Assembly (NCBI GenBank): GCA_016191105.1
Contig: JACPPH010000002.1
Coordinates: 67,268 to 131,267 of the forward strand
Direction of reading: 5' to 3'
DNA from: Candidatus Saccharimonadota bacterium
GTDB taxonomy: Bacteria > Patescibacteriota > Saccharimonadia > CAILAD01 > BJGX01
DNA length: 64,000 nt
Under the pieces are notes generated by a model. The model had not been told where the DNA came from, searched no databases, and worked only from the letters and a program-made list of their open reading frames with translations. Of this stretch, positions 3,910 through 51,291 are shown piece after piece. A program made the position numbers and the translations under genes. How positions within the stretch are numbered: position 1 is the stretch's first letter; each line of letters starts with the position of its first letter.

Positions 3910-4446
3910 ATGCCTAAAAAGAAATCATCTAGTGAAGTAGCTCAATTAATTAGGTTCGTAGCGGTGGGCGTGGTTAACACGCTGGTTGATTTTGTGGTTC
4001 TAAATGTGCTGGTAGTCACGCTACTGCCCAAAACAGCTAGCTTTGGTAACCTTGTGGTATCTGGCCAAATGATTAGCTTGAATGGAGTGGTCGTGGCTGG
4101 TGTTATATCTGGCACTGTGGCCATGATTGTTAGTTTTTTGCTAAACTCTCGCTTTACTTTTCGTATTCGTCATGTGGCTCGCAAGAGGATAGTTTACTTT
4201 TTTACTATTACTGCTTTCGGGCTTTACATTATTAGACCGGCTATCTTAAAAATAATGACCGGTGCCTGGGTATGGCCATCGACAGTGGTTTATAAGATTA
4301 CAAGCTTTTTGCGCTTGCCATTTAGCCAAAGCTTTGATGAACGAAATACTGCCCTAGCAGCAGCTATTTTAATAGTACTGAGCTATAATTACCTAATGTA
4401 TAAATACTTTGTGTTTGTAGATGAAAAGCAAGTCAAACAAGCTTGA
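3910..4446 (+). CDS. GtrA-family polysaccharide-synthesis membrane protein (flippase-like)
   Basis: N-terminus 'VAVGVVNTLVDFVVLNVLV' is typical of GtrA. Four TM helices. Confidence 0.7.
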   Translation: MPKKKSSSEVAQLIRFVAVGVVNTLVDFVVLNVLVVTLLPKTASFGNLVVSGQMISLNGVVVAGVISGTVAMIVSFLLNSRFTFRIRHVARKRIVYFFTITAFGLYIIRPAILKIMTGAWVWPSTVVYKITSFLRLPFSQSFDERNTALAAAILIVLSYNYLMYKYFVFVDEKQVKQA

Positions 4447-5992: not shown

Positions 5993-6752
5993 TTTAAGTA
6001 TAGTTATACCGACCTTAAACGAAGCCAAGCGAATAGACTCAGCTCTTAGGGAGTTGTCAGCTTATTTGCGCAAGCAAAAGCAATCAGTTGAGGTAATAAT
6101 TGTGGATCTACATAGCCCTGACGGCACGGCCGAGCTTGCCAAAAAACAGGCCAAGGCATTTGAGAGTCTAAAAGTTATTGATGCTGGGCCTAGGCCAAAG
6201 GGTAAGTTCCTTAAGGGCAAGCAGGTTAAATTGGGGGTAATGGCTGCCAAGGGTCGCTACATTATGTTTATGGATGCCGACCTGGCGACTCCACTCAAGT
6301 ATATCGACAATGTATTTGCGCTTATGAAAGAAGAGAAACCGATAGCCATTTGTGTGCGTGACTTGCAAAGTAGCCATACCGGACTGCGTAAGTTTATCTC
6401 TGGGGTAGGCAACTTTTTGGTTCAACTAATCCTGCTGCCGGGGATAAAAGACACCCAGTGTGGCTTTAAGGTTTTTGAGGCAGAGGCCGCTCGCCAAATA
6501 TTTAAACGACAACGGGTTGTTAGTTGGGGGTTCGACATGGAAGCTTTGGCTATTGCCCGCCGGCTGGGCTATAGAATAGATACTATCAGTGTGCCCGATT
6601 GGCACGATGTGGCCGGCGGTTCATTTGGCGGCAAGGCCATTAAATCTACCCTACAGACATTTTTTGATCTGGTAAGGATAAAGTGGTGGCTGATAACAGG
6701 TCGCTACAACAAGGCACGGGGCCATGGTGCAGAATCAGCCGAAATCGCTTAA
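5982..6752 (+). CDS. GT2 glycosyltransferase (polyprenol-phosphate sugar synthase-like)
   Basis: 'LSIVIPTLNEAKRI' and the 'FMDADL' DxD motif. Confidence 0.8.
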   Translation: MAVDLSIVIPTLNEAKRIDSALRELSAYLRKQKQSVEVIIVDLHSPDGTAELAKKQAKAFESLKVIDAGPRPKGKFLKGKQVKLGVMAAKGRYIMFMDADLATPLKYIDNVFALMKEEKPIAICVRDLQSSHTGLRKFISGVGNFLVQLILLPGIKDTQCGFKVFEAEAARQIFKRQRVVSWGFDMEALAIARRLGYRIDTISVPDWHDVAGGSFGGKAIKSTLQTFFDLVRIKWWLITGRYNKARGHGAESAEIA

Positions 6753-8214
6753 GCGGCCAATAATTAGACATTCGGCTATTGTGGTCGGTTTACTAACCCT
6801 GCTCGGCGTGGCTATAAGGTTTAGTTTTATTGCCAAGGCTAGCATTTGGCACGATGAGGCTTTCAGTATAATGCTGGCGAGCCGCAACCCGTTTAGTATT
6901 TGGGCATTGACGGCTCGCGATGTTCACCCGCCGCTTTATTATGAGCTGCTCCATCTATGGATTAATTTGTTTGGTCGCAGCGAGCTGGCAGTCCGCAGCT
7001 TGAGCGCTGTTGCTGGCGCGGCCGTAATCCCGATTGGTTATGTAGTGGCCAAAAAAGCTGCTGGTAGGAGAGCCGGCTATTTTGCACTAGTTTTTCTGGC
7101 TTTGGCGCCATTCCTGATTCGTTACTCGCAAGAGGCGCGCATGTATGGCTTGCTTGGTCTCGAACTGCTGCTAGCACTCTGGGCGGTTATGAATATTGTC
7201 AATAAACCAAGACAGTTTTGGGCTTATGCGGCCTTTGCCACAACCATCACCGCTGGTCTGTACACCCATTATTTTACGGTTTTGGCTGTTTTTAGCCTCT
7301 GGGCTTACCTGATTCTGTTACAGCCATTTAAGCAGTGGAGGCTCGAAAAAACCATTTGGCTAAGCTGGCGGTGGTGGGCGGCAAACATTGTAGCCTTAGT
7401 TTTGTTTCTACCTTGGCTGCCCAGTATGTTGGCGCAGCTCAAGCGCGGCCAAGGCCTAAGCTGGTTGCAACCAACCAGCACTAGAACCGCATTTGACACG
7501 GTGTGGCAATTTCTAACCTTTACCGATGGCCGCTTAACAAATATAGCTTATTGGCTAGTTGGCTTGGTCGTGGTCGCGATGATGGTATGGCTTTGGCAGG
7601 GCGATAAAACCAAACAACGGTTTACTCGCTTAGTAGTGCTGTACACGGCTCTGCCAATTACGATTGGCATTGTGGTGTCGTTGTTTAAGCCAGTGTTCCA
7701 TGAGCGTTATTTTGCCTTTGCAGCGATCGGCTTTTATATTTTACTGGCTTTAATGGTGGACAGGATTTACCGGCTCAATCTCTGGCTGGCCATAGTGGCG
7801 GGGCTGCTGATTTGTGCTGTTGAAGTTGTCGGCATTCGTAACGTTTATGCACAGAGCAATCACCAAATGCGAGCTGAAATGGCGGTGCTAAACGATGGCT
7901 TTCGACCGGGCGATATTATTGTTTCGGGCGAGCTCTACACTTATTTTGATAGTACCTACTACAACTCTACTGGCCAGCGTTTATTGCTTTATACGGGAGT
8001 TGCCGGCAGACCCAATGGCTATGGCGAGTCGAGTCTTATATACGATCAAAACGTCTATCTGGATAGTTATACAGAAATCCCAGTTGGTTCAAGGGTGTGG
8101 CTGGTGGGCAAAACCGGCGATCGCAGCTATTACAGCCAGGTGCCGGCCAGCTGGCAGCTGCAACAGCAGTCTGAGTCGGGCTATAGCGAAGTCCGACACT
8201 ACCTGGTAAAATAA
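6724..8214 (+). CDS. ArnT/PMT-like (GT39-type) membrane glycosyltransferase, second copy
   Basis: Multi-TM protein with 'WHDEAFS' and 'VHPPLYY' motifs. Confidence 0.65.
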   Translation: MVQNQPKSLKRPIIRHSAIVVGLLTLLGVAIRFSFIAKASIWHDEAFSIMLASRNPFSIWALTARDVHPPLYYELLHLWINLFGRSELAVRSLSAVAGAAVIPIGYVVAKKAAGRRAGYFALVFLALAPFLIRYSQEARMYGLLGLELLLALWAVMNIVNKPRQFWAYAAFATTITAGLYTHYFTVLAVFSLWAYLILLQPFKQWRLEKTIWLSWRWWAANIVALVLFLPWLPSMLAQLKRGQGLSWLQPTSTRTAFDTVWQFLTFTDGRLTNIAYWLVGLVVVAMMVWLWQGDKTKQRFTRLVVLYTALPITIGIVVSLFKPVFHERYFAFAAIGFYILLALMVDRIYRLNLWLAIVAGLLICAVEVVGIRNVYAQSNHQMRAEMAVLNDGFRPGDIIVSGELYTYFDSTYYNSTGQRLLLYTGVAGRPNGYGESSLIYDQNVYLDSYTEIPVGSRVWLVGKTGDRSYYSQVPASWQLQQQSESGYSEVRHYLVK

Positions 8215-8238
8215 CTAATTGTTTTAAGGAGACCCTAG

Positions 8239-8547
8239 ATGAGTATGATGGATAAGGCCAAAATGGCCCAAAAAGCTCTTAAACTGCAAAAAGAACTCAA
8301 GCGCCTAAGCATAGAAACCGAAGCTGGCGACGGCTTGGTGCACGTCACGGCCGGCATTGCTATTAGCTCCAGCAGTATGAATGTTGAGATTCGCGATATC
8401 AAGATCGATGAAAGCGCAACCGAAGACCTAGATAGATTGCAAGATCTGCTGGCTAGTGCTATCAACAAGGCCAACAAAGAGATTATGGCCGAAGCTACCG
8501 AGAAGATGCAGGCTATAGCTGGTGGGCTCGGCTTGCCTGGCATGTAG
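8239..8547 (+). CDS. ybaB: YbaB/EbfC nucleoid-associated protein
   Basis: 102 aa with a C-terminal 'GGLGLPGM'. SD 'AAGGAG'. Classical ybaB-recR linkage. Confidence 0.85.
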   Translation: MSMMDKAKMAQKALKLQKELKRLSIETEAGDGLVHVTAGIAISSSSMNVEIRDIKIDESATEDLDRLQDLLASAINKANKEIMAEATEKMQAIAGGLGLPGM

Positions 8548-8742
8548 CTGTCGGCTGTAAGCTGGAACGAATAGCTGCGTCTAATTTTTGACTTTCACTC
8601 ATCGTACCTTTTGTGCGATTCATTTCGAGTCTCAAATTATCCTTGCACTTCATTCCAATTTTTGAGCCTTAACATTTTCACTAAATCTGAAATACAATCG
8701 AGCTTATGGTATTATAAACAGAAGCTTTAAAAAGGTGGGTTT

Positions 8743-9336
8743 TTGGATATTTTGCCAGAGGGGGTAACCCAATTAATTGAAGAGTTTTCCAAATTACCAT
8801 CGGTTGGCCCGAAAACGGCCGAGCGGCTGGTTTTTTATTTGCTCAAAAGTGATGACTACGAGGGTTTGGGTCGGGCTGTGCTCGAGCTCAAACAGGGCCT
8901 ACAAAACTGCGAGGTCTGTCGTAACTTTGCCACCTCGAGCCGGTGCTCCATTTGCGCCAATCATAGCCGCGATCAAAAGTTGATATGTGTGGTGTCGCAG
9001 CCACTCGATATTGTGGCTATCGAAAAAACTAGCCTATACAAAGGCACCTACCATGTTTTACATGGCGTAATCAGTCCGGTAGAGGGTATTGGCCCCGACG
9101 ATTTAGAGCTTGAGAGCTTATTCGAGCGAGTGCGCAAGCTAAATCCAGAAGAAATTATTTTGGCCACCAACCCTAACCTAGAAGGCGAGACTACGGCGCT
9201 GTATATCTCTAAAAAACTTAATGATTTTGATGGTAAGATTACCAAGCTGGCTCATGGCTTACCGATCGGGGCTGATCTAGAGTACGCCGACCAAATGACG
9301 CTTGGCCGAGCGCTCAACAATCGATTGAGCTTTTAA
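8743..9336 (+). CDS. recR: recombination protein RecR
   Basis: HhH 'LPSVGPKTAERL', C4 zinc finger 'CEVCRN..CSIC', Toprim domain. Confidence 0.9.
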   Translation: MDILPEGVTQLIEEFSKLPSVGPKTAERLVFYLLKSDDYEGLGRAVLELKQGLQNCEVCRNFATSSRCSICANHSRDQKLICVVSQPLDIVAIEKTSLYKGTYHVLHGVISPVEGIGPDDLELESLFERVRKLNPEEIILATNPNLEGETTALYISKKLNDFDGKITKLAHGLPIGADLEYADQMTLGRALNNRLSF

Positions 9337-9413
9337 ATGCTAGATTTTCAGGTACTAATATGCTATTATAGTGTCCGAATCAATCCGCACCACCAAGAAA
9401 GTAGGTAAGAGTC

Positions 9414-9896
9414 ATGCTCCGAGGAATCCATCCGCTTCTGACGGGTGAGCTGTTGCATTGCATTAGCGACATGGGTCACGGTGACACCATAGTGATTGGC
9501 GATGGCAACTTCAGCTCCGATGCCGATGCCCGTGCGGGCAACTGTTTCACGGTCGAGCTGTGGGGCTACAACACACTCGAGATTGTACGCCAGATCCTTG
9601 GATACATGCCGCTCGACGACAAAGACGGGCCTAGCGTCCACTTCATTGCCGAGACAGGGGATGAGCCATGGGAAGCGCACGCCGTCTGGATCCGTGCCAA
9701 CTCCAACCTGGCCCACTGGGCCAGGCAGATGGGCAAGGAGCTCACAGACGTCGTGTCGATGCTGCCACGAGCCGAGTTCCACGAGCTAGCTCGCCGGGCT
9801 TACGCCATCGTGCTTACCAACGATCCGACCCACTACGCCTACTTTGCCCTACGCAAGGGTGCTCTGCCTGAGCCAGAACAGGTGAGCGTGGGTTGA
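9414..9896 (+). CDS. RbsD/FucU-family sugar mutarotase (high-GC islet)
   Basis: 'MLRGIHPLLTGELLHCISDMGHGDTIVIGD' aligns with the N-terminus of E. coli FucU, and the C-terminal 'RAYAIVLTND..YAYFALRKG' also matches. GC is about 60% against roughly 47% in the flanks. Confidence 0.75.
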   Translation: MLRGIHPLLTGELLHCISDMGHGDTIVIGDGNFSSDADARAGNCFTVELWGYNTLEIVRQILGYMPLDDKDGPSVHFIAETGDEPWEAHAVWIRANSNLAHWARQMGKELTDVVSMLPRAEFHELARRAYAIVLTNDPTHYAYFALRKGALPEPEQVSVG

Positions 9897-9973
9897 CCCC
9901 CACACAGTCCTTCACGCTGCGCGTCCTGCCCAGTATGGAGGACGCGTTGCATTAAAGGCACCCTCTCTTTACC

Positions 9974-9998
9974 AACCTAAGGGTACGACCCTTAGGTT
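9974..9998. repeat. perfect 10-bp inverted repeat AACCTAAGGG-tacga-CCCTTAGGTT
   Basis: Seen directly. It follows a second hairpin at 9920..9946 at the right edge of the high-GC islet. Confidence 0.8.
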
Positions 9999-10039
9999 AA
10001 GGTAGCATCATGTGCAGGAGATGCTCTATACTTATATGC

Positions 10040-10588
10040 ATGAAAGGTTTTGCCAAAGACATACTGTTGATGGACTTTGAATCGACCGGCATAGACCCGG
10101 TTGTTCACGAGCCAACTCAATTAGGCGCAATATTGCTCGATAAAGAGACTCTGCAAGAAAAAGATTCTTATCTTACATTTATCGGCGCAGACTTAAGCAA
10201 GGCCAGTAAAGAAGCGCTGGAGATTTCCGGAATTTCTCAAAAAGACCTAGAGGATGCCCCAGCCCAAGAAGAAGTAGCTAAAGAGTTCTTACAAAAATTT
10301 GGCACAGACGTGTTCTTGTCATCGTGGAATTCAATACTAGATAGAGGGTTGCTCGATAAAATGCTACGCATAATTGGCAAAACTATATTTGAATATGATT
10401 ATCACTACTTAGATGTATGGCCAATTTGCTATATGTACTTATGTCGCACCGGTCAAGGCGATAAACTCCGTGGTGATGCAACATTCAAAGCCTTAGGTCT
10501 ACCACAGCGCCAAAACCACGATGCGCTCGAAGATTGTCGGTACGCCGCCGAAGCACTCAAGGCCGTTTACGAAGGAAAAGAATACTAA
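10040..10588 (+). CDS. DnaQ-like (DEDDh) 3'-5' exonuclease
   Basis: 'LLMDFESTG' (Exo I) and 'HDALEDCRYAAEAL' (Exo III). The leaderless start at 10040 is supported by a TATACT -10 box 7 nt upstream. Confidence 0.75.
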   Translation: MKGFAKDILLMDFESTGIDPVVHEPTQLGAILLDKETLQEKDSYLTFIGADLSKASKEALEISGISQKDLEDAPAQEEVAKEFLQKFGTDVFLSSWNSILDRGLLDKMLRIIGKTIFEYDYHYLDVWPICYMYLCRTGQGDKLRGDATFKALGLPQRQNHDALEDCRYAAEALKAVYEGKEY

Positions 10589-11961
10589 TGCTAAAACTTT
10601 ATAATTCACTAACCAAGAAAAAAGAAGAATTTAAGCCCATTCACGCTGGTCATGCCAATATATATAGCTGCGGGCCAACGGTTTACGACCATGTGCACAT
10701 CGGCAACTTGCGTGCTTTTTTGTTGCCAGATCTGCTGCAGCGGGTTCTGCGCTACGTCGAACACCTCGATGTCACCTGGGTTATGAACATTACCGATGTC
10801 GACGACAAGATTATTGCTCGAGCCGCTCGAGACAACAAAAGTGATGAGCCAATTACTGCCCTAGGAAAGCTAGCCGATCGTTACACAGATGTGTTTATAA
10901 ATGATATTGAGAAGGTTGGAATTGACCGGGCCGACATAAGCCGTTTACCTCGAGCCACCGATAACATTGCCGAAATTCAGGAGCTAATTCGACATTTAGT
11001 AGCCAAACAAATTGCCTACATTAGCGATGGCAGTGTGTACTTTAGCCTAGAGCATTACAAAAAAGCCGGCCACAAATACGGTGTGCTAGCAAATGTGCAG
11101 TTCAATGCTCAAGCCAGAGTAATAGACGATCAAGATCAAAAAGAGGGAGTGGGTGATTTTGCGCTTTGGAAGGCTCAAAAAAGCGATGAGCCGGCATGGG
11201 ATTTCGAGATTGAAGGCCAAAACTTGCGTGGCCGGCCTGGCTGGCACATTGAGTGCTCAGTTATGAGCACCAAATACTTAGGCCAGCCCTTTGATATTCA
11301 TACTGGCGGCGTGGATCTTAAATTCCCGCATCACGAAAATGAGATTGCTCAGTGCGGCGGCGACCAAGCCCATTATTATTTGCACAATGAATTTGTTAAT
11401 GTCGAGAATAGTAAGATGGCCAAATCGGTCGGTAACTTCTTGACCATCGAAGATGTCAAAGACCCTATAGCTTTTCGATACCTGTGCCTGCAAGCCCACT
11501 ATCGTAGTGAAATGAACTACAGCAGTGAAGTTCTGGCGGCTGCCGGTGAAAGGCTAAAAAACTTGCGCAAGTACGCCGACCAACTAACTCTGGTAAAAGA
11601 GGATCAGCTGGCCGAAGATGACAAAAGTGGTAAGGTTGCTGAGTTCATGGAAAAGTTCAACCAGTCGCTACAAGATGATCTGAACAGTCCTGAAGCCTTA
11701 GCGGCTCTTAGCTTGCTTGAAGGTAAGGCTTACAATCAGCAGGCCAAAAAAGCCATGCAGTGGGCCGATTCGGTTTTGGGCCTAAGACTAGTAAATGATG
11801 AGCCTATAGCCAAGCCGGCTCAGGAGCTTATTAGCAACTACGAACGAGCTCGTGAGCGCAAAGACTATGAAGCCTCGGACAAACTGCGCGAAGAACTCGA
11901 AAAAGAATTTGGCCTCGGTGTGTCCGACACCGAGATAGGCACACTAATACATAGGCTATAA
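10588..11961 (+). CDS. cysS: cysteine--tRNA ligase
   Basis: HIGH motif 'HIGNLRAF', 'KMAKSVGN' (KMSKS), Zn ligands 'CGPT' and 'HIEC'. Confidence 0.92.
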   Translation: MLKLYNSLTKKKEEFKPIHAGHANIYSCGPTVYDHVHIGNLRAFLLPDLLQRVLRYVEHLDVTWVMNITDVDDKIIARAARDNKSDEPITALGKLADRYTDVFINDIEKVGIDRADISRLPRATDNIAEIQELIRHLVAKQIAYISDGSVYFSLEHYKKAGHKYGVLANVQFNAQARVIDDQDQKEGVGDFALWKAQKSDEPAWDFEIEGQNLRGRPGWHIECSVMSTKYLGQPFDIHTGGVDLKFPHHENEIAQCGGDQAHYYLHNEFVNVENSKMAKSVGNFLTIEDVKDPIAFRYLCLQAHYRSEMNYSSEVLAAAGERLKNLRKYADQLTLVKEDQLAEDDKSGKVAEFMEKFNQSLQDDLNSPEALAALSLLEGKAYNQQAKKAMQWADSVLGLRLVNDEPIAKPAQELISNYERARERKDYEASDKLREELEKEFGLGVSDTEIGTLIHRL

Positions 11962-15096: not shown

Positions 15097-15193
15097 ATAG
15101 CTATGATAGCACGGTGAGGCTTTTACATTCTTAAGAAAGTCATAAGGTGTTAAACCGGGCAGGCCGACCGCAAAAAAACTTTCTAAAATTGTA

Positions 15194-15222
15194 TTGACAA
15201 TATCCAGTACCTGTGGTATAAT
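15194..15222 (+). promoter_or_regulatory. consensus sigma-70 promoter TTGACA-N17-TGgTATAAT
   Basis: Perfect -35 box, 17-nt spacer, and an extended perfect -10 box. The next + strand CDS is 565 nt downstream. Confidence 0.65.
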
Positions 15223-15673
15223 TCAACTATCATTATTTTTGAGCTACTGGACTCCCAAATAGTGCTCAAGCTACAACTAAATACACCGCCACCCCGACAC
15301 AAGGGTCCGAACTGTTAACTAATAGCCGGCAAGACATATGAGCTTACCGCTATCACTTTCGCGAGGTTATCGCTTTAAAACAACAAAACCGGGCCTTTAT
15401 GTGGGGATGGTGTTTTGCCTATAAATGAAGCCAAAGATCTAGTAACTTTTTCGTCATTTATAAGCAAAATAGCTTTTTTTGAAAAAAGTTGGCCAAATGT
15501 TGTTGACATCAGTTATGCTTATGTTATTATCAGAAGCACTATGTTAATCAACACAGTCAAGTTAATTACTCGCACTCGAGCAAAAACAGCGCCCACTTTT
15601 GGCGCGCTTAGCGCTACCCGTGTGCCCGGACTGAGTCGTTTTATTTCATAAACTTTAGAGAAATCATTCGCTA

Positions 15674-15702
15674 GAAGCTCGGGACCACACTCTCGAGCTT
15701 CT
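15674..15702 (+). terminator. hairpin AGAAGCTCG-N11-CGAGCTTCT followed by TTAGTT (attenuator or terminator) in the ABC-exporter leader
   Basis: 9-bp perfect stem, seen directly. Confidence 0.5.
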
Positions 15703-15786
15703 TTAGTTACGGCAACCCGTAGCTAGAAGCACCAATCACATCACGATCTTTCACAACCAAACCTACGACCCCTATAAGGAGGAAGA

Positions 15787-17568
15787 ATGGGAGTCAAAAT
15801 GATGCTGCAGATGTATCGTCTGCTGCTGGCTAAGCCAGAAGTACGAGCCAAATATCGTGCTATGCGCCAAAGCATTGTCAAGGCGCTAGCACTGGTGTTT
15901 GTGGTCGAGGCGCTGTCGGTGGCCGAGGTGTATCCGCTGCGGGGTATTTTTGACGGCATGTCTGTTAAGGCTCCTGCCAGCACCCTGGTGATCTGGGTGA
16001 TTGCCATGTTTGGCATTCGCCAGGTTCACACCGTGCTCGACCAGCACAAGGAGTATCACCAGATGACAACCGACTGGCAAAACCTGGGCAACATTCTTGG
16101 TCATGGTCACGAGCACCAGCTCAGCCAGGATCAAAAGTACCAGATCGATCATTCCACCGGAGAGAAGGAGTCCACGCTTTCAAAGAACATTTGGAAGATG
16201 GAAAACCTCATCGACGTAGTGATCTACCAGGTTACGCCCATGATCATCATGATCGGGTTCATCCTGGCGGCGCTGTCGATATTCGACTGGCGCTACAGTG
16301 CTATCACCGTCGTGACCATCGCCATCTACTGCCTGGTTACCAGGCACTTCGAGAAGGTGTTTGCTCCCAAGCGCATAGAAGAGCATGAGGAATGGAAGGC
16401 AATTGAACGGATGGCCAGCGAGCAGGTTAAGGGCTGGCGGACAATCAAGTCCAATGGCCTGGAGCTACAAAAGGCTCGCGAGCTCCAGTGTGCAATCGAG
16501 AAGTTCATGCAGGCCAACGCCAAACGCCGACGGATTCGCATTCGCCACTGGGTGGTACAGAACTCGGTGTTGAGCGTTTCGATCCTGTTTATCTGGGGGT
16601 TTTCCCTCTGGCTGTACAGCATCGACGCCATGAGTACCGGCGTGTTGGTGATCATCAATGGCTGGATAGCCAAGCTTTACAGCCACATGTTCCGCTATGC
16701 CAACTTTCAACGCGAGGCCTACGAAGGCGTGGCCAGTCTCAACGACATGGTTGAGTTGCTCTCTAGTAGCTCGGCTATCGACGGTATGCCGAATGCACTA
16801 CAACTGCCCGCCTCTGGCCTTGGCTGCGAGGTTGTGCTCGACGGTGTGGGCTTTCGCTACCACGACGACGGTGAGTACGCGCTACGCGACATAACCGCCA
16901 AGCTGCCAGCAGGCAGCACGGTGGCGATTATGGCGCCATCGGGTGGAGGCAAATCAACTCTGGCCGATCTGTTGATAAGGGCATACGACACCTGCGAGGG
17001 ATCCATTTACCTCGACGGTGTTGACCTGCGCGACATAGACCGCCAACACCTCATGCAGGTGGTTGCGGCCACAGTGCTGCAAGATGCCAATCTCTTCGAC
17101 GGCACCATTGCCAGCAACATCGGCTTTGGCTGCTTGCGCGAACTGAGCCAAGCAGAGGTAGAGGTAGCCGCAAAGCAGGCCTACGCCCACCAGTTCATCA
17201 TGGAGTTTCCTGAGGGATACGACACGATGGTGGGTGAGGACGGCGTGCGGCTCAGCGGCGGGGAAAGGCAAAGGATCGCCATTGCGCGAGCCCTTGCCAA
17301 GCAACCGCAGCTGCTGATCATGGACGAGGCCACTAGTGCTCTCGATGAACCGAGCCAACGCATGGTGAACCTCTCTATCCAGGCTAAGTCAGCTGAGCGG
17401 AGCTGCACCATTGTGCTGATAGCCCATCGGTTTAGTACGGTCGAACACGCCGACTTAGTGTTGGTGCTCGACCATGGCAAGCTGGTGGACTTGGGTACCA
17501 TTGCTGAGCTTGGTGAGCGCTGCGAGCTGTTTCGACGGCTCAGGAGCGGCGAGATCAGCATGGAGTAG
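15787..17568 (+). CDS. ABC exporter, fused permease/ATP-binding protein (type I, MsbA-like), moderately high-GC
   Basis: N-terminal TM domain. Walker A 'APSGGGKSTL', signature 'LSGGERQRIAIARAL', Walker B 'LLIMDEATSALD'. RBS AGGAGG. Confidence 0.88.
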   Translation: MGVKMMLQMYRLLLAKPEVRAKYRAMRQSIVKALALVFVVEALSVAEVYPLRGIFDGMSVKAPASTLVIWVIAMFGIRQVHTVLDQHKEYHQMTTDWQNLGNILGHGHEHQLSQDQKYQIDHSTGEKESTLSKNIWKMENLIDVVIYQVTPMIIMIGFILAALSIFDWRYSAITVVTIAIYCLVTRHFEKVFAPKRIEEHEEWKAIERMASEQVKGWRTIKSNGLELQKARELQCAIEKFMQANAKRRRIRIRHWVVQNSVLSVSILFIWGFSLWLYSIDAMSTGVLVIINGWIAKLYSHMFRYANFQREAYEGVASLNDMVELLSSSSAIDGMPNALQLPASGLGCEVVLDGVGFRYHDDGEYALRDITAKLPAGSTVAIMAPSGGGKSTLADLLIRAYDTCEGSIYLDGVDLRDIDRQHLMQVVAATVLQDANLFDGTIASNIGFGCLRELSQAEVEVAAKQAYAHQFIMEFPEGYDTMVGEDGVRLSGGERQRIAIARALAKQPQLLIMDEATSALDEPSQRMVNLSIQAKSAERSCTIVLIAHRFSTVEHADLVLVLDHGKLVDLGTIAELGERCELFRRLRSGEISME

Positions 17569-17585
17569 GCAAGTGAGTGATGTGA

Positions 17586-17624
17586 GACCCCGGCAATTCG
17601 CGAAAGCGGATCCGGGGTTTTCAC
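17586..17624 (+). terminator. rho-independent terminator CCCCGG..CCGGGG-TTTTCACTTT
   Basis: GC stem plus a T-tract just after the ABC exporter stop. Confidence 0.75.
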
Positions 17625-17746
17625 TTTGTAAAAAAACTTTTCTGGCAGTTGCTACCTGCAGAATCTTGAAAAATGCAGCGTTTTCGGCTATGATTATCAG
17701 GTTAAATTGCGTAACTGCAGCTTAAAACCCAGTTTTAGCTCGACGA

Positions 17747-17821
17747 TGGGGCGTAGCCAAGTGGTAAGGCACCGGTTTTTGGTACCGGCATTCGCAGGTT
17801 CGATCCCTGCCGCCCCAGCCA
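17747..17821 (+). tRNA. tRNA-Gln (anticodon UUG)
   Basis: Cloverleaf with a 7-bp acceptor stem UGGGGCG/CGCCCCA and a U1:A72 pair typical of bacterial tRNA-Gln. D-loop 'AGTGGTAA', anticodon loop 'tt-TTG-gt', T-arm 'GGTTCGATCC', encoded CCA. Very similar to E. coli tRNA-Gln. Confidence 0.9.
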
Positions 17822-17859
17822 GCGAAAAGTGCCCGAGCTTGTCTCGGGTGTTTTTCGCT
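17821..17859 (+). terminator. nested hairpin AGCGAAAA/TTTTCGCT around CCCGAG/CTCGGG with a T-tract
   Basis: Seen directly, immediately after the tRNA. Confidence 0.7.
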
Positions 17860-17967
17860 GGCGTGTGTGATATCGAACCGTAGAGCGTAGCGGAAGGTTC
17901 GGCGTAGCGAAATCCACGCACAGAAATATATTTCGAGCATGAATGAGTGAAGAAGGCGAGAGCCGCC

Positions 17968-17985
17968 TCCCTGCCGCCCCAGCCA
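17968..17985 (+). repeat. 18-bp perfect direct repeat of the tRNA-Gln 3' end (TCCCTGCCGCCCCAGCCA), att-like
   Basis: Identical to 17804..17821, 164 bp downstream, and followed by an A-tract/GACCC..GGGTC/T-tract hairpin. Confidence 0.8.
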
Positions 17986-18179
17986 TAGTGCCTATGCTCA
18001 AAATGACCCATTTGGGTCTTTTTTGATATTTACTCGCCAGGTGTGGCGATAGGCAGATCGGCAAATGGGCTAGAAACCAAGCAGAGTTACTAAGCAATCG
18101 CCCACGACAAGTCGAAATTAAGGCTTAAGAAAACTGGCTAGCTCCAGCAAAAATTAATCTTATATGTTACAATCTGACT

Positions 18180-18518
18180 ATGATTTCCGGGGTAAAAAGT
18201 AAGTTATTTACAACCTTGGTTACCATAGCGTTGCTGCTTGGTGGTTTAGCGATATTAAATTTCTACTCAATGTCAATGCAGCCCACCAGCGAACATTTCG
18301 ACTACAACACAACCTGTAAAATTGCTTGCTTTGGCCAGGCTATTGGTAATCTTGGTGCCGCTCCTACTAATCCTGAAAGTTTGGTACTAGTTTTATCGTT
18401 TGCAGGGCTGGTGGCTGGGTTTGCTGTCGGTACAACTAACACCGGGGTCTTTAACAAGGCCTTTCGTTATAGCCTAGGGCCGCCGCTCTACAAACGCTTT
18501 GAGTCTTATCGTGATTAA
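18180..18518 (+). CDS. hypothetical small membrane protein
   Basis: Two TM helices. Leaderless: TGtTACAAT at 18165-18173, then 6 nt, then the ATG. Confidence 0.4.
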   Translation: MISGVKSKLFTTLVTIALLLGGLAILNFYSMSMQPTSEHFDYNTTCKIACFGQAIGNLGAAPTNPESLVLVLSFAGLVAGFAVGTTNTGVFNKAFRYSLGPPLYKRFESYRD

Positions 18519-18564: not shown

Positions 18565-19101
18565 ATGAAATCTAAAATATGGCCTGTAGTGATAGGCTTA
18601 AGCGTGCTCGCGGTTGCGCTGTTTATCGGATTCGCTATTACTCGCCCCGATGTACCGCCAGGGCAGGCAAAGACCTCAAACACCACAAATAAATCAACTG
18701 ACTCCAATATAGTCTCGAACAGTGAGATCCATTGGCACCCAAAATTAGCGGTATATATTAACGGACAAAAACAAGAGATTCCAGCCGAAACAGGAATTGG
18801 TCAGCAGTATGCCAAAAGCCGTTGGTATGATTCTATGATGCAAATGGCGAACATACATACTCACGACAATAGTGGTCAATTGCATTGGGAAGTAATGGAG
18901 GGCCCGGTTCGAAAAGACCAAGTTCGTTTGAGTGCGTTTTTTGACGTTTGGGACAAGAAGTTCAGCAAAATCCAGGTGTTCGACAAGACCGACCCTAAAG
19001 GGTCAAAAATCACCATGACTGTTAATGGCCAGCCTAACAGTGAATTCGAAAACTACATGGTGGCCGACAATGATCAGATTGAAATAAAGTATCAAGATTA
19101 A
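18565..19101 (+). CDS. membrane-anchored secreted protein with His motifs (HWH, HTHD)
   Basis: N-terminal TM/signal region, RBS AAGGAG, His-rich motifs. It sits at the head of the metal-homeostasis cluster. Confidence 0.45.
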   Translation: MKSKIWPVVIGLSVLAVALFIGFAITRPDVPPGQAKTSNTTNKSTDSNIVSNSEIHWHPKLAVYINGQKQEIPAETGIGQQYAKSRWYDSMMQMANIHTHDNSGQLHWEVMEGPVRKDQVRLSAFFDVWDKKFSKIQVFDKTDPKGSKITMTVNGQPNSEFENYMVADNDQIEIKYQD

Positions 19102-19111
19102 CAGGGAGATA

Positions 19112-19546
19112 ATGATGAAGCAGGAATCAATACTATATGGTGTGATTGGCTTACTAGTGGGTGTACTGTTGGCTATGTTTGTGTCAGCCATTGTTGCTAA
19201 TTCACAAAACCAAACAATGATGCGAGCGATGTGCATGAACACGGGCAACGGAATGAATGGCTCGTCGATGAGCATGGAGAATATGACGAACCAGCTCAAA
19301 GCCAAGTCTGGTAGTGAGTTTGAGAGGGCCTTCTTAGAACAAATGACTGTACACCACCAAGGGGCTATTGGTATGGCTAACCTGGTCTTACAAAAGTCCA
19401 CAAGACCGGAGTTGCGCAAACTTGCCGAAGACATCGTTGCTGCTCAGACCAAAGAAATCAACCAAATGAAAGAGTGGCAAACACAGTGGAGCTATGCAAC
19501 TAGTTCTAGCTCAAATAGTAGTAATATGGGTGGAATGGCTAATTAA
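19112..19546 (+). CDS. DUF305 family protein (often associated with metal resistance)
   Basis: 'VHHQGAIGMA..LRKLAEDIVAAQTKEINQM' is the DUF305 signature. N-terminal TM helix. Confidence 0.65.
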   Translation: MMKQESILYGVIGLLVGVLLAMFVSAIVANSQNQTMMRAMCMNTGNGMNGSSMSMENMTNQLKAKSGSEFERAFLEQMTVHHQGAIGMANLVLQKSTRPELRKLAEDIVAAQTKEINQMKEWQTQWSYATSSSSNSSNMGGMAN

Positions 19547-19637
19547 GTAAAAGTTTGCAGCTTTGTTGCCAACACAACTGAGCACTAACAGGTTAGCTGC
19601 TAGTTATAACGCCGATGCACAAGGCGGGGCTTGATTA

Positions 19638-19654
19638 ATACCCCTCAGGGGTAT
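19638..19654. promoter_or_regulatory. candidate CsoR/RcnR-type operator ATACCCC-tca-GGGGTAT overlapping the -10 region of the repressor gene
   Basis: Perfect 7-bp-arm palindrome with C/G tracts directly abutting the TACAAT -10 box (19654-19659). The ATG is at 19669. Confidence 0.6.
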
Positions 19655-19668
19655 ACAATAAAATCAAT

Positions 19669-19953
19669 ATGAATGCTGATATAAAAAAGCGCTATGTCCA
19701 TCGCACGAGGATTATCGAGGGTCAAATCCAAGGCCTACAAAAAATGATAGACAGTGAAGCCTATTGTATGGATGTATTGACGCAGAGCTTGGCTATTCAA
19801 CGGTCGCTCGCATCATTAAACAAGCTAGTGCTCGAGAACCATTTACGCACTCACATTACAGATATGTTTGGGGCCGGCGATAGCAAAGCCCAAAAAAAAG
19901 CGGTTGCTGAGCTGCTAAGCCTATACGAACTTAACAACATTCGGGGTAAGTAA
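19669..19953 (+). CDS. CsoR/RcnR/FrmR-family metal-sensing transcriptional repressor
   Basis: 94 aa. X-Y-Z residues C33, H58 and H62 with RcnR-like 25/4 spacing. Confidence 0.8.
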   Translation: MNADIKKRYVHRTRIIEGQIQGLQKMIDSEAYCMDVLTQSLAIQRSLASLNKLVLENHLRTHITDMFGAGDSKAQKKAVAELLSLYELNNIRGK

Positions 19954-20231
19954 TGTTAGGCAAGCGTTTGCGGGAGTTTATGCGGTGTCATCAGGGCAAA
20001 GTTAACCTATTGCTACATGTTGTTGGTTATTCTCTGGTTGGTGTTGGTATTTGGCAGAAGAGTTTCTGGTATGTGATTGCGGGTGCGATAGTTCAAGAGC
20101 TTGGTCATTTTTATCAGTACGTCAAGACCAAAAACTACAAAGACAGCCCACTTTATTGTCTAAGATCGCAGGTATTATTTGCGCTGCCGGCTTTAAGCTT
20201 AATACTTATTTACATTTGGATAGCACGGTAA
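19953..20231 (+). CDS. hypothetical small membrane protein co-encoded with the repressor
   Basis: 92 aa with 2-3 TM helices. Its start overlaps the repressor stop. Confidence 0.4.
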   Translation: MLGKRLREFMRCHQGKVNLLLHVVGYSLVGVGIWQKSFWYVIAGAIVQELGHFYQYVKTKNYKDSPLYCLRSQVLFALPALSLILIYIWIAR

Positions 20232-20376
20232 GTTGCCAAAAATGACTATAGCCAACCCCGTTCATCACGGCAGCCAACAAGATAGCGCTAAACATGCTGG
20301 CCGCCTAATAGCTATGTTTAGCAATAAGTTTTAGGAAGGTATTAACCAACAATTTAAGTCACAAAGATTAACAATA

Positions 20377-22533
20377 ATGGAGTCAAAAATGTCTAAACAT
20401 CAAATCAATTCTAATAACGAAGCCATGCAAGGCATGACAGAATCAGAACATCATATGCATCACATGTCTGAGGGAAACATGACACGGTGGCAGAAATTTA
20501 AAATGAGTATGACTATGACCATGGGTATGGATCATAGCGGACTGGCCGGCCGCGAAATGGCCAAAATGATGGAAATAGACATTCGCAATAAATTCTTTTT
20601 TGCTCTAATACTATCTGTGCCGATCATTGCTTATTCGCCACTCGGAACTAGCATTCTAAAGTTGAGCTTGCCCCAGCCGATCCCGGCAGCTTGGATACTG
20701 TTGATTCTTACGACACCGGTATTCTTCTATGCCGGCTGGATATTTTTGTACTCTAGCTATCATGCGCTAAAAGCCAGGACACTCAATATGGCTGTTTTGA
20801 TTGCGGTTGGTATATCGGCGGCGTATTTTGCAAGTATTTTGCTGACCTTGGTAGGCAGTTCGGAATCGTATTATGAGGCTGCTGCTCTGTTGATTACTTT
20901 CGTGTTGTTTGGTCACTGGATGGAAATGAAGTCTCGGCGCGGAACAACCGATGCCTTACAGGCTCTGTTTGATCTGGTGCCACCTCAGGCCCGGCTAATA
21001 CGGGGCAATAAAGAGGTTATGGTATCGACCAGCGAGGTGCGAGTTGGCGACATCTTGGTATTAAAACCGGGCGACAAAGTTCCGGTTGACGGCGAAGTGA
21101 TAAGTGGTCAAACGTCTATCGATGAAGCCCTTGTAACGGGCGAGTCGCTACCTGTTAGTAAACAAAAGGGTGACCCCGTAACCGGCGGATCTATCAATCA
21201 ATCTGGAACCGTCCGAATCAAGGCTACCAAGGTAGGATCAGATACGGTTTTGGCTCAAATTGTTAAAATGGTTGAAAACGCCCAAAACTCCAAGGCGCCT
21301 GGCCAGCGCCTGGCCGATAAATTTGCCGGCTATTTAGTAATCTTGGCCATATCGGCTGGGTTGCTAACCTTTGCGGCTTGGGCTGTGTTTTCTAATCAGG
21401 GTTGGCTATTTGCACTAACCCTAGCAATATCGGCTGTGGTAATAGCCTGCCCCGATGCACTTGGCCTAGCCACGCCCACCGCCGTAGCCGTGGGCACTGG
21501 TTTGGGTGCCAAACATAACATTCTTATAAAAGATGCTGCTACGCTTGAGCAAACTGCCAAGATCCAAGCCGTTGTACTCGACAAAACTGGCACTCTCACC
21601 GAAGGCAATCCCCAGGTTACCGATGTAGTAAGCGTGGCTGGTTTCAAAAAAGACCATCTTATAGAATTGGTTGCCGCCGCCGAGGCTGGCTCTAGCCACC
21701 CCTTGGCGCAAACCATCATCAACGAAGCTCATAAGCGCCGCCTTAAGTTGGTGGCCGTCAAGCGGTTTAATAATATTGCTGGGCTTGGTGTGGAAGCGGT
21801 GGTAGAAGGTAAGCGAGTACTGGTAGGAACCGAGCGGCTTATGAAAAATCGCAAGCTCTCAACTAAAGCCATTCAGGCCGACATCGACAGGTTGCTAGCA
21901 GAGGGCAAGACCCTCATGATTATTGCCATTAACGACAAGGTATCTGGTGTTATAGCGGCCTCGGACAAGATTAAGCCGACCGCCCAAAATGCCATTACCG
22001 CTATGCAGCAACTTGGTTTAGAGATTGTTATGATTACTGGTGATAATCAGAAGACCGCAGACATCGTTGCTAAGCAACTAGGTATTAAGCGTTATTTTGC
22101 CGAGGTCTTGCCTGCCCAAAAAGAAAGTTATGTAAAAAAACTTCAAAGCGAAGGCCGGTTTACGGCTATGGTTGGAGATGGGGTTAACGATGCGCCGGCG
22201 TTAGCCCAAGCCGATATTGGTATTGCTATCGGGGCGGGTACAGATGTGGCTATAGCAACAGCAAAAATTGTTTTAATGAAGTCTGATCCGACCGATATCA
22301 TAAGGGCTATTCGTTTGAGCAAAGCCACTATTCGTAAAATGAAGCAAAATTTAGGCTGGGCGAGTGTCTATAACATTGCTGCCATTCCTATTGCTGCCGG
22401 AGTATTATATCCAGCTTATGGCGTTTATCTTAGACCAGAGTTCGCGGCGCTTCTAATGTCGGTTTCGTCAATTTTTGTGGCCGTGAATGCGGTTATGCTA
22501 AAACGGGCCGAAAAGCAGCTGTTAACGGTGTAG
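20377..22533 (+). CDS. heavy-metal-translocating P1B-type ATPase (CopB-like) with an atypical CPD TM6 motif
   Basis: 'DKTGTLT', 'GDGVNDAPAL', TM7 'YN....P', TM8 'MSVSS.....N'. Met/His-rich N-terminus (HHMHHM, MSMTMTMGM) with no CxxC HMA domain. TM6 reads 'CPDALGLATPTA' (tgc ccc gat). Confidence 0.88.
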   Translation: MESKMSKHQINSNNEAMQGMTESEHHMHHMSEGNMTRWQKFKMSMTMTMGMDHSGLAGREMAKMMEIDIRNKFFFALILSVPIIAYSPLGTSILKLSLPQPIPAAWILLILTTPVFFYAGWIFLYSSYHALKARTLNMAVLIAVGISAAYFASILLTLVGSSESYYEAAALLITFVLFGHWMEMKSRRGTTDALQALFDLVPPQARLIRGNKEVMVSTSEVRVGDILVLKPGDKVPVDGEVISGQTSIDEALVTGESLPVSKQKGDPVTGGSINQSGTVRIKATKVGSDTVLAQIVKMVENAQNSKAPGQRLADKFAGYLVILAISAGLLTFAAWAVFSNQGWLFALTLAISAVVIACPDALGLATPTAVAVGTGLGAKHNILIKDAATLEQTAKIQAVVLDKTGTLTEGNPQVTDVVSVAGFKKDHLIELVAAAEAGSSHPLAQTIINEAHKRRLKLVAVKRFNNIAGLGVEAVVEGKRVLVGTERLMKNRKLSTKAIQADIDRLLAEGKTLMIIAINDKVSGVIAASDKIKPTAQNAITAMQQLGLEIVMITGDNQKTADIVAKQLGIKRYFAEVLPAQKESYVKKLQSEGRFTAMVGDGVNDAPALAQADIGIAIGAGTDVAIATAKIVLMKSDPTDIIRAIRLSKATIRKMKQNLGWASVYNIAAIPIAAGVLYPAYGVYLRPEFAALLMSVSSIFVAVNAVMLKRAEKQLLTV

Positions 22534-22675
22534 ATCGACTATTGGTAAGCGCCCTAGCTTAAGTAGTGTATCGCAACTTACGGCCAGATTTTTAGAGGAG
22601 TGCTTACCGATAGCTAACGATTGTGGTAGTAGCCAATGCCTAGGTGTTTTGTAAAACTAAGTTATAATTGTGGTT

Positions 22676-23551
22676 ATGCATAGCCACGACCGCCAGGCCT
22701 CAAGGTCTTTTAAGTTTGTAATTGGATTTATATTAAACACTGGCTTTACGGTGTTGGAGTTTGTTGTCGGCATAATGGCTGGCAGTTTGGCTCTTGTTTC
22801 AGATGCCTCGCACAATTTAACCGACTCGCTGAGTATAGCCATTGCCTTTGGTGGCGAGCGAGTGTCTAGTCGTCAGGCCAATGATAGCAAGAGTTATGGC
22901 TTTGGCCGGGTTTCGATTGTCACAGCTCTTATAAATGGCGTATTGCTATTCGCGGTGGCTGCCTATATTTTTTACGAAGCTTATTTACGAATCTTGAACC
23001 CCGAACCGGTCAAAGGGGGTTTAGTTGCAATTGTGGCCTTGGCTGGCATTCTTATAAATGGTGTAGTGGCTTTGCTGTTTTACAAAGACAAAGACGACCT
23101 CAATGTTAAAAGTACCTTCTTAAATATGGCCTTTGATACGCTTAGCTCGGTCGGCGCAATGATTGCTGGTCTTATTATACTCGTAACCGGCAATACGCTG
23201 GTCGATCCAATAATTGGCATCCTAATTGGCTGTATGCTTGTTTTTAGTGCCTATGGCGTGGTTCGGGATGCTTTACACATATTGTTAGAGGGTACCCCCA
23301 AAGATATCGATAGTTCTGAAATTGCTAATTTTATCTTGTCGTTCCCGCATGTCAAAGGAGTAGACGATCTACATATATGGTCGATCTCGTCGCATTATCT
23401 AGCTATGAGTTGCCATATTGTTATTGAAGAGGAAAATTTGCAGAGTAGCGTTGACCAAGTTAAGGCTATTAAAAAACAACTGCTAGGCAAATATCAAATC
23501 CAGCACGCCACGATTGAGACCGAGCTTAAGCATTGCGAGCCAAAGCACTAG
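22676..23551 (+). CDS. cation diffusion facilitator (CDF) family transporter
   Basis: TM1-2 'SLALVSDASHNLTDS' and the C-terminal cytoplasmic domain. Leaderless: TATAAT at 22663-22668, then 7 nt, then the ATG at 22676. Confidence 0.85.
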   Translation: MHSHDRQASRSFKFVIGFILNTGFTVLEFVVGIMAGSLALVSDASHNLTDSLSIAIAFGGERVSSRQANDSKSYGFGRVSIVTALINGVLLFAVAAYIFYEAYLRILNPEPVKGGLVAIVALAGILINGVVALLFYKDKDDLNVKSTFLNMAFDTLSSVGAMIAGLIILVTGNTLVDPIIGILIGCMLVFSAYGVVRDALHILLEGTPKDIDSSEIANFILSFPHVKGVDDLHIWSISSHYLAMSCHIVIEEENLQSSVDQVKAIKKQLLGKYQIQHATIETELKHCEPKH

Positions 23552-26030: not shown

Positions 26031-26044
26031 ACAATAATAAATTG

Positions 26045-26938
26045 ATGAAAAAAACAGTCAATCACAAAGCGCCGTTTGATCTGCGCAATCAAAACAGCTT
26101 TTTTGGCAGCTGGCCTGTAATTGACGACACAGATCAAAACTACGCTATTGCAATTGCTTTTCCAGTCGAGGGCTGGCAGGAGTCGGCTTGTGTCGTTGTG
26201 TCTCAAAACCAAGTTGGTGAACTGACCGCTGAAGCCAATGTCGTAAAAGATTCAAAACGAGCAATCGACCAAGCCCTAGCCACACTGTCGTTAGATGTTG
26301 ACGATACAGGTTGGGAGGGGGTCGGGCAGGCAGACAGAGTAATTGGTGAGCTGCAACACAAGTACAGCTATTTACGACCGGTGCTGTTTCACTCGCCATA
26401 CGAGGCTGCAGCTGGGTTTGTAATCGGGCAACGAATATCCGTTAAGCAGCGCCAAGCAATTCAGCAAAGGTTAGCCGAAGAGCTAGGCGATGAAATCGAA
26501 GTTGAGGGTAAGAAATACCACGCGTTTCCGCAACCACAGAAGTTATTGGAGGTAACTGAACACAAGGGTCTAAACGAAACTAAGCTAGAGCGTCTAAAAG
26601 GTGTTGCCCAGGCAGCGCTCGATGGTACGTTAACACGCGAACACTTGTTGGGCGTGAGCCCAGAGAAGGTACTCGAAAAGCTACAGGCCTTGCCTGGCAT
26701 TGGTCCATTTTATGCCAGCGGGATACTTTATCGTGGTGCCGGGGTTGTCGATGATATAACCGACGACAAGTTGACCAAGTATGTTATTAAAAAGGCCTAC
26801 AGGCTCGATAGCGAACCAAACCAAAAAGAGGCTTTGCAAATTGCCGAAAAGTGGAAGCCATATAGAATGTGGTGCGAAGTTTTATTGCATGTATGGTTGC
26901 GCCGCGAAGTTGGCATGCCTAAAATGGGGGAACGATGA
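26045..26938 (+). CDS. HhH-GPD DNA glycosylase (AlkA-like DNA-3-methyladenine glycosylase II)
   Basis: HhH 'LPGIGPFYASGI' followed by the catalytic 'GAGVVDD'. Confidence 0.7.
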   Translation: MKKTVNHKAPFDLRNQNSFFGSWPVIDDTDQNYAIAIAFPVEGWQESACVVVSQNQVGELTAEANVVKDSKRAIDQALATLSLDVDDTGWEGVGQADRVIGELQHKYSYLRPVLFHSPYEAAAGFVIGQRISVKQRQAIQQRLAEELGDEIEVEGKKYHAFPQPQKLLEVTEHKGLNETKLERLKGVAQAALDGTLTREHLLGVSPEKVLEKLQALPGIGPFYASGILYRGAGVVDDITDDKLTKYVIKKAYRLDSEPNQKEALQIAEKWKPYRMWCEVLLHVWLRREVGMPKMGER

Positions 26939-27357
26939 AAGTTTCGAATGATTTTAAAATGGTGATTGTGCTCGACGACGATTTGTCGTTGGGGCTTAAA
27001 ACCAACACAGCGGCAGTACTATCGCTCACCTTGGGCAGCAAGGTCGAGGGTTTAATTGGGCACGACCTGCACGACAAAGCTGGCAATAAACACACCAGCC
27101 TCACCAGGATTCCAGTGCCAATTCTAAGGTGTAGCCCAGAACAGCTAAAACAAACTTACGATCAGGCCTACGAACTAGATGGCGAGCTGCTGTTGGTTGA
27201 TATTACCGATGCTGCTCAAACCACCACAAATTACCAAGACTACCAGCAAAAACTAGAATTAACTGAGCCGAAAGATCTTAAATTGTTAGGAATTGCATTG
27301 GCAGGCTCCAAGAGTCTAGTAAACAAGCTGACCGGCAACATGGGCCTGGTTCGCTAG
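26935..27357 (+). CDS. hypothetical protein (possibly DUF2000-like)
   Basis: 140 aa, translationally coupled between the glycosylase and the ATL gene. Confidence 0.35.
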   Translation: MKVSNDFKMVIVLDDDLSLGLKTNTAAVLSLTLGSKVEGLIGHDLHDKAGNKHTSLTRIPVPILRCSPEQLKQTYDQAYELDGELLLVDITDAAQTTTNYQDYQQKLELTEPKDLKLLGIALAGSKSLVNKLTGNMGLVR

Positions 27358-51240: not shown

Positions 51241-51291
51241 AAGAATTTTGGGTGATCAAACGGCCCCCTAGCAGCCTATAGCTATTAAGCT

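Follow-up and report, generated by a model that had tools for sequence, protein, structure and literature searches.

The only tRNA gene in the window (the whole 64-kb stretch of DNA analysed here) encodes tRNA-Gln(UUG) and is followed by an exact copy of its own last 18 nucleotides. We lean towards reading this arrangement as the scar of a site-specific integration at the 3′ end of this single tRNA-Gln(UUG) gene, left by an element that has since been reduced to 146 bp.

Repeat and spacer at the tRNA-Gln gene

The tRNA gene was identified by ARAGORN on the + strand at 17747-17821 and scored 64.7 bits against Rfam RF00005, for which the gathering score is 29. The 18-mer TCCCTGCCGCCCCAGCCA at its 3′ end has exactly two exact copies in the window, at 17804-17821 and 17968-17985, both on the + strand, as the sequence-only reading had reported. 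The features of the locus are as follows.

17666-17694, + strand: sigma-70-like promoter of tRNA-Gln (TTGAAA, 17-nt spacer, TATGAT; 10/12 in a consensus scan)
17747-17821, + strand: tRNA-Gln(UUG) gene, intact, with CCA encoded (ARAGORN, Rfam); under the integration model, the regenerated target on the attL side
17804-17821, + strand: repeat copy 1, the 18-nt 3′ end of the tRNA, from T-loop bases 59-60 through CCA
17822-17967, no strand: spacer of 146 bp between the repeat copies, without an ORF; putative remnant of an integrated element
17822-17862, + strand: perfect 16-bp hairpin with a U-run, intrinsic-terminator-like, abutting the tRNA 3′ end (inverted repeat; MFE and centroid folds)
17863-17921, + strand: second hairpin, imperfect, with a nested CGAACC/GGTTCG stem and two GCGTAGCG motifs (centroid fold, direct repeat)
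17968-17985, + strand: repeat copy 2, an orphan 18-nt tRNA-Gln 3′ fragment; under the integration model, displaced to the attR side
18005-18024, + strand: terminator-like hairpin GACCCATTTGGGTC with T6, 20 nt 3′ of copy 2; presumed original tRNA terminator (terminator scan, fold)

The repeat covers the last two T-loop bases, the 3′ strand of the T-stem, the 3′ acceptor strand, the discriminator and CCA. Copy 2 thus equals positions 58-75 of the 75 tRNA-Gln positions and is located in intergenic sequence without a credible gene. The two copies start 164 bp apart. Outside them identity is at the random level, with 13/57 bases identical upstream and 15/57 downstream, and no tRNA body is present 5′ of copy 2. 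Shuffled sequences contained on average 0.02 TCCCTGCCGCCCCAGCCA matches, with two or more matches in 0 of 100 shuffles, and the number of extra 18-mer copies expected by chance from base composition is 4e-7 per window and 6e-9 within 1 kb. An independent assembly, the Logan contig L002 (run SRR12113392), contains 17822-18180 at 100% identity with both 18-mer copies present, so an assembler-specific artefact is unlikely. The repeat is real, correctly placed and beyond chance.

The T-loop of the window tRNA-Gln reads TTCGATC (17802-17805 region), as against TTCGAAT in the related contigs L017, L019 and L022 described below, and the differences fall precisely on the two bases that open the 18-nt repeat. 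It was also observed that Logan contigs break within tRNA-Gln in four of five samples, as at the ends of contigs L017, L020 and L022. In run SRR12113392, two Logan contigs overlap by exactly 30 nt (17774-17803) and stop one base before the 18-mer. These breaks may reflect only tRNA sequence common to co-occurring species; alternatively, they could be caused by strain variants that diverge from 17804 onward.

The spacer had been described as holding hairpins only, and this was confirmed, as no credible ORF was found in it. The GCGTAGCG motifs of its second hairpin are located at 17885-17895 and 17902-17912, 17 bp apart, and it is speculation to regard them as arm sites of a recombinase. An A/T-rich stretch runs into copy 2. 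No Rfam match at E ≤1 was obtained for the spacer. Both 18-mer copies have a terminator-like hairpin 0-20 nt downstream, and joining 17821 to 17986, with 17822-17985 removed, restores a tidy promoter-tRNA-terminator unit. The layout TTGAAA...TATGAT/TACAAT...CAGGT is likewise present 5′ of tRNA-Gln in L017 and L019.

Gene neighbourhood and synteny

Upstream of the tRNA gene the window carries dnaX, dnaB, glycosyltransferase genes, ybaB-recR, the gene for RNase T, cysS, a GT1 gene and an MsbA-like ABC exporter gene; CysS (10588-11961) is identical to MBI2797786.1 from a Candidatus Saccharibacteria (TM7) MAG. Downstream are genes for two hypothetical proteins, a CopM-like DUF305 protein, a CsoR/RicR-like repressor, a CopA-type P-type ATPase and a ZitB-like CDF transporter, and after the latter a 205-aa ORF, GNAT, NUDIX and CYTH proteins, a 298-aa HhH-GPD-like protein, a DUF2000 protein and an MGMT-like protein. 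From approximately 35 kb on, housekeeping genes follow (recO, an aaRS gene and mraW-ftsI-mraY-ftsW-murG-ftsQ). Further along, on the minus strand at 48589-52314, an 883-aa TrwB/TraG-like type IV coupling-protein ATPase is encoded upstream of topA and dprA; its gene adjoins that of a protein with sigma-70 region 4 and HARE-HTH domains. In this genome of approximately 1 Mb, their functions may relate to conjugation or DNA uptake.

Relatives were sought by homologue searches with CysS, the ABC exporter and the DUF2000 protein, after which 12 contigs were looked up. Against the genome collection, the best matches of the ABC exporter showed at most 45% identity, and the species is absent from the GTDB representative set. 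Among the contigs looked up, synteny was kept only in L017, L019/L030/L031 and L022; other gene contexts were found in L018, L029, L032, L033, L138 and L139-L142. In the Logan contig L017, CysS is 77% and the ABC exporter 92% identical to the window at the amino acid level, and the order is GT1, ABC exporter and tRNA-Gln, the contig stopping within the tRNA. L022 also stops within tRNA-Gln. These two are closer relatives than L019, for which the identities are 52% aa for the ABC exporter, 62% for RecR and 41% aa for CysS. The orthologous tRNA-Gln comes after the ABC exporter in all three.

In L019 the whole upstream synteny is kept, and the DUF2000 gene lies within 250 bp 3′ of tRNA-Gln, with a 299-aa gene next. 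The tRNA end is in single copy in this distant contig, as it is in the similarly distant L030/L031. The sequence-only reading had named a duplicated 18-mer in relatives without the island as the observation that would speak against integration; L019 was found to lack both the downstream segment of approximately 8 kb and the duplicate. In the window, the DUF2000 orthologue (26935-27357, 71% aa identity with L019) is located approximately 8-9 kb 3′ of tRNA-Gln, and the orthologue of the 299-aa gene product, the 298-aa protein encoded at 26042, shares 50% aa identity with its L019 counterpart. Because these two genes lie directly 3′ of tRNA-Gln in L019, the segment from 17986 to approximately 26000 may be lineage-specific at this site. 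The case for this is weak, because DUF2000 is found in unrelated contexts in other relatives and because another lineage has two P-type ATPases directly after the ABC exporter, with no tRNA. The DUF2000 gene is 62-73% identical at the amino acid level among Saccharibacteria-like contigs (L029, L032, L033), and it is itself mobile or often rearranged, since its neighbourhood differs in almost every contig examined.

Within this segment, a copper/zinc homeostasis cluster occupies 19112-23551 (DUF305, repressor, an unknown 92-aa protein, CopA-type P1B ATPase and CDF), and 5′ of it 18180-18518 and 18565-19101 encode two proteins without a Pfam, NCBIfam or PHROG match. The copper/zinc segment is genome-typical in both GC and GC3 and gave no PHROG signal except for the CsoR-like repressor; nothing ties it to the 18-mer repeat. 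Of the earlier description of a metal-resistance island, the gene content was therefore right. The status of the metal genes as an island rests on a single distant comparison (L019), because their composition is typical and no att boundary delimits them.

The ABC exporter had been taken for a foreign gene, but it is no recent import, as it is syntenic (between GT1 and tRNA-Gln) in L017 and L019. Its GC3 is 0.71, 0.70 and 0.68 in three lineages, compared with 0.40-0.60 for neighbouring genes. The block containing it, 15173-17627, is 84% identical to L017 at the nucleotide level and 92% at the amino acid level, whereas the flanks show 69-76% nucleotide and 77% amino acid identity (CysS, GT1). 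The block consists of a promoter with a perfect consensus (TTGACA, 17-nt spacer, TG-TATAAT; 15194-15222), a leader of approximately 565 nt with a conserved small ORF (15415-15651, 73% aa identity in L017), the MsbA-like ABC exporter gene (15787-17568) and a terminator. Such features suggest that Saccharibacteria have exchanged the module repeatedly or that it is under unusual selection. In L017, an additional ORF (16669-17310) is located between the ABC exporter and tRNA-Gln; it encodes a highly acidic 213-aa protein (D/E/A/P-rich) at 65% GC, and upstream of it is a second promoter-like site, TTGAAG...TATGAT, that resembles the tRNA promoter. The ORF is a further sign of an insertion-prone intergenic region.

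Searches for an integrase, a parent element and an empty site

No integrase or recombinase domain, PF00589 included, was found in the Pfam-scanned large ORFs of the window, and the precomputed Pfam labels of the upstream genes at 4421-11961 contain no integrase. A tblastn search of the window with a tRNA-Gln-associated integrase did not reveal the remnants that the sequence-only reading had suggested looking for; its statement that the window contains no integrase thus stands. A third copy of the core was not found in the window at up to 3 mismatches, nor was a shared 12-mer, and the best TCCCTGCCGCCCCAGCCA-like match between 17986 and 36000 agrees at 13/18 positions. The earlier proposal that the repeat is the proximal att of a larger island therefore finds no distal counterpart in the window, where the housekeeping genes begin at approximately 35 kb.

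Neither junction, i.e., the core with its left or its right flank, was found in IMG/VR, and BLASTN of 17822-18180 against phages and plasmids returned nothing meaningful. No homologue of the spacer was present in phages, plasmids, IMG/VR or the relative and viral loci compared. The predicted empty site (attB) consists of the tRNA-Gln end joined to 17986 onward, i.e., directly TAGTGCCTATGCTCAAAATGACCCATTTGGGTC, and this junction was not found in JGI metagenomes. An empty or occupied site in a close relative was not available, because the lineage is barely sampled. The JGI metagenome scan gave 104 matches to 18-mers not preceded by A. Many of these look coding by their flanks (ORFs not called), the same flanks recurring across loci, and no tRNA-Gln is present in the loci of the 104 orphan 18-mers.

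The 18-mer alone has six matches in IMG/VR, two of which are true tRNAs. One match, L028 (IMGVR_UViG_3300006928_000345, region 3932-5331), contains the 3′ half of a tRNA-Gln(UUG) adjoining a gene for a 432-aa tyrosine integrase (PF00589, E 9e-23), and the 3′ end of this tRNA equals the window 18-mer. The anticodon arm of this fragment, ACGGGTTTTGATCCCGT, exactly matches those of the Saccharibacteria relatives L019 and L022. L028 is a candidate for a temperate element that inserts at the anticodon loop in a Saccharibacteria-like host. Its example demonstrates that integrases elsewhere use tRNA-Gln genes with an identical 3′ end, though at the anticodon-loop sublocation. Three other IMG/VR matches were set aside: in L025 the 18-mer is inside a 904-aa ORF; L027 matches at 23/24 bases with flank, but apparently, as judged by eye, in a long reading frame running off the locus; and L024 is likely coding, as judged from sequence appearance only.

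Proposed integration model

If the repeat is an integration scar, the incoming element would have carried in its attP the last 18 nt of the tRNA together with its own terminator, and recombination with the gene would have taken place in the T-loop / T-stem region. An intact tRNA would thereby have been regenerated (17747-17821), now adjoining element DNA and the hairpin at 17822-17862, and the original 18-nt 3′ end and original terminator would have been shifted to the far side (17968-17985 and 18005-18024). Later deletion of the integrase and cargo would have left 146 bp between two intact att cores, the end product being a minimal, gene-less remnant resembling a cis-mobilizable element. Both the making of the repeat by a tyrosine recombinase and the shrinkage by deletion are inferred. 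One terminator-like hairpin per copy is expected under this model, because incoming DNA would bring a replacement tRNA end and terminator; past integration and deletion would therefore explain why each core has a terminator of its own. The geometry fits the integrase-mediated footprint proposed earlier, and a decayed element is its best reading, although the window and the collections searched yielded neither a cognate element or integrase nor an empty site. Against the scar stand the additional deletion that it needs, which has to have spared both cores, the absence of a known parent element for the spacer, and the fact that illegitimate replacement of the tRNA region, without an integrase, predicts the same picture.

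Comparison with known systems

The pairing of a regenerated tRNA gene with a displaced 3′ fragment, known as the Islander signature, is reportedly associated with the name of Williams (2002). This signature is described for tDNA islands and prophages (Hudson et al. 2015, PMC4383910), with which the locus shares an intact tRNA gene whose 3′ end recurs exactly and co-oriented further downstream, a fragment starting in the T-loop / T-acceptor junction region and a replacement end with a terminator. In the configuration tests of Islander, the fragment proved to be 3′-terminal, downstream, in the same orientation and outside any CDS domain or other tRNA, and a full-length tRNA/tmRNA gene, here tRNA-Gln(UUG), is present at one end. 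Its 5′ edge in the T-loop places it in the T-loop / T-acceptor junction class, which makes up 1836 of 3919 Islander islands (PMC4383910). Islander additionally asks for a tyrosine integrase between tDNA and fragment and for a length of 2-200 kb, whereas here the interval is 146 bp long and has no ORF. The locus further differs from tDNA islands in lacking cargo and in its host, a member of the Saccharibacteria (CPR). No description of tDNA-integrating elements in Saccharibacteria was found in literature titles and abstracts.

CIMEs are decayed ICEs or IMEs that have kept attL and attR and lost the genes for integration and transfer (PMC5704250). The locus resembles them in that both att-like repeats are intact and identical, as two 18-bp cores that presumably served as att sites, and that no recombination or transfer genes, indeed no ORF, lie between them. 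Unlike CIMEs, which derive from recognisable ICEs or IMEs, it consists of 146 bp of non-coding hairpins without an identifiable parent, as the spacer has no homologue in the collections compared. By analogy, the closest described category for the locus would nevertheless be the CIME, i.e., a decayed, att-flanked, gene-less remnant (PMC5704250), its mobilisation being putative.

A third parallel is offered by the ssrA island arrays of Dehalococcoides, whose boundaries are 20-bp direct repeats derived from the 3′ end of the tmRNA gene (PMC3146451). Both cases involve a 3′-end repeat of approximately 20 bp from a single-copy RNA gene with a T-loop, an insertion point in the T-loop and a small streamlined genome, and the Dehalococcoides arrays include members without integration genes. 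Those arrays, however, have many repeats, kb-scale islands and a serine-recombinase module, in contrast to the one extra repeat and no recombinase seen here (PMC3146451).

Alternative explanations

Among the alternatives, illegitimate or homology-facilitated replacement is rather unlikely. According to it, DNA of a related Saccharibacterium, with a tRNA-Gln and its own hairpins, replaced most of the resident tRNA gene, and a non-homologous right join left the resident last 18 nt and terminator orphaned, an integrase never having been involved. It also predicts two modules of tRNA end plus terminator and needs no lost integrase. Inter-lineage exchange has left signs nearby in the block at 15173-17627 with its elevated identity to L017, the GC-rich 213-aa ORF of L017 is located between the ABC exporter and the tRNA, and the window contains a gene for DprA, which fits with DNA uptake and recombination. 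However, the high-identity block ends at 17627, before the tRNA promoter, so it gives no evidence that the tRNA travelled along. With its start in the T-loop and its end precisely at CCA, the orphan fragment has the canonical footprint of a tDNA integrase (PMC4383910); nothing would direct an arbitrary illegitimate junction to the T-loop. In addition, no donor sequence matching 17822-17967 was found in phages, plasmids or the loci compared. Tandem accretion, which we regard as quite improbable, would make copy 2 the left att of a second, larger island extending from 17986 to approximately 26000, with copper/zinc efflux genes, GNAT, NUDIX and CYTH as its cargo and its integrase and distal att lost; the 146-bp remnant would have joined the array before or after it. 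tDNA sites commonly harbour tandem arrays in which some members have decayed (PMC5704250, PMC3146451), the terminator 3′ of copy 2 might just as well mark the left end of a second element, and the position of DUF2000 at most 250 bp after tRNA-Gln in L019, as against 9 kb in the window, makes the intervening segment appear lineage-specific. Set against these points, the window offers neither a third core nor an integrase, and the segment has genome-typical GC and GC3 with the CsoR-like repressor as its sole PHROG signal. The comparison genome is distant, DUF2000 occurs elsewhere in unrelated contexts, P-type ATPases directly follow the ABC exporter in another lineage that has no tRNA there, and two integrations and three losses would be required.

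The 164-bp unit, i.e., the spacer with one core, could be a live gene-less miniature integrative cassette and not a dead scar, an idea to which we give little credence. An integrase from elsewhere in the genome, or from a visiting element, would still excise such a unit, insert it again or treat it as a landing pad for accretion, and the tRNA-Gln site would be a population-level integration hotspot in Saccharibacteria; the branching of Logan graphs inside tRNA-Gln in four of five samples is consistent with such a hotspot. Still harder to credit is an origin of copy 2 as a decayed tandem tRNA duplicate (pseudo-tRNA), as a chance match or as part of a selected RNA element reusing the tRNA 3′ end. 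An 11-mer, GGCGTAGC(C/G)AA, that is like a tRNA 5′ end occurs at 17901-17911, 67 nt before copy 2, but neutral decay cannot give 18/18 identity beside 13/57, and neither ARAGORN nor Rfam detected a second tRNA-like structure. A pseudo-tRNA at 17899-17985 was accordingly rejected, its interior and flanks being at random identity. Chance is opposed by the expectation for the window given above. As for an RNA element, 17822-18030 as a whole folds better than shuffles (z = -2.67), but the 123-nt segment 17863-17985 alone folds no better than shuffles (z = -0.62), and on this ground, with Rfam also negative, the structured-RNA reading of the spacer was rejected.

Significance

The feature is a fresh instance of a well-known type of footprint, and the main point of note is its host, a CPR bacterium. 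As the locus has no genes and the phenomenon is a textbook one, its practical value is modest. Saccharibacteria are episymbiotic, have genomes of approximately 1 Mb and are hard to manipulate as a group. If the integration-scar reading is true, these reduced genomes would have been visited by integrative elements that target tRNA genes. The exact att core, TCCCTGCCGCCCCAGCCA, would then be known and could provide a handle for finding such elements, and genetic tools for Saccharibacteria might use it as a landing site.
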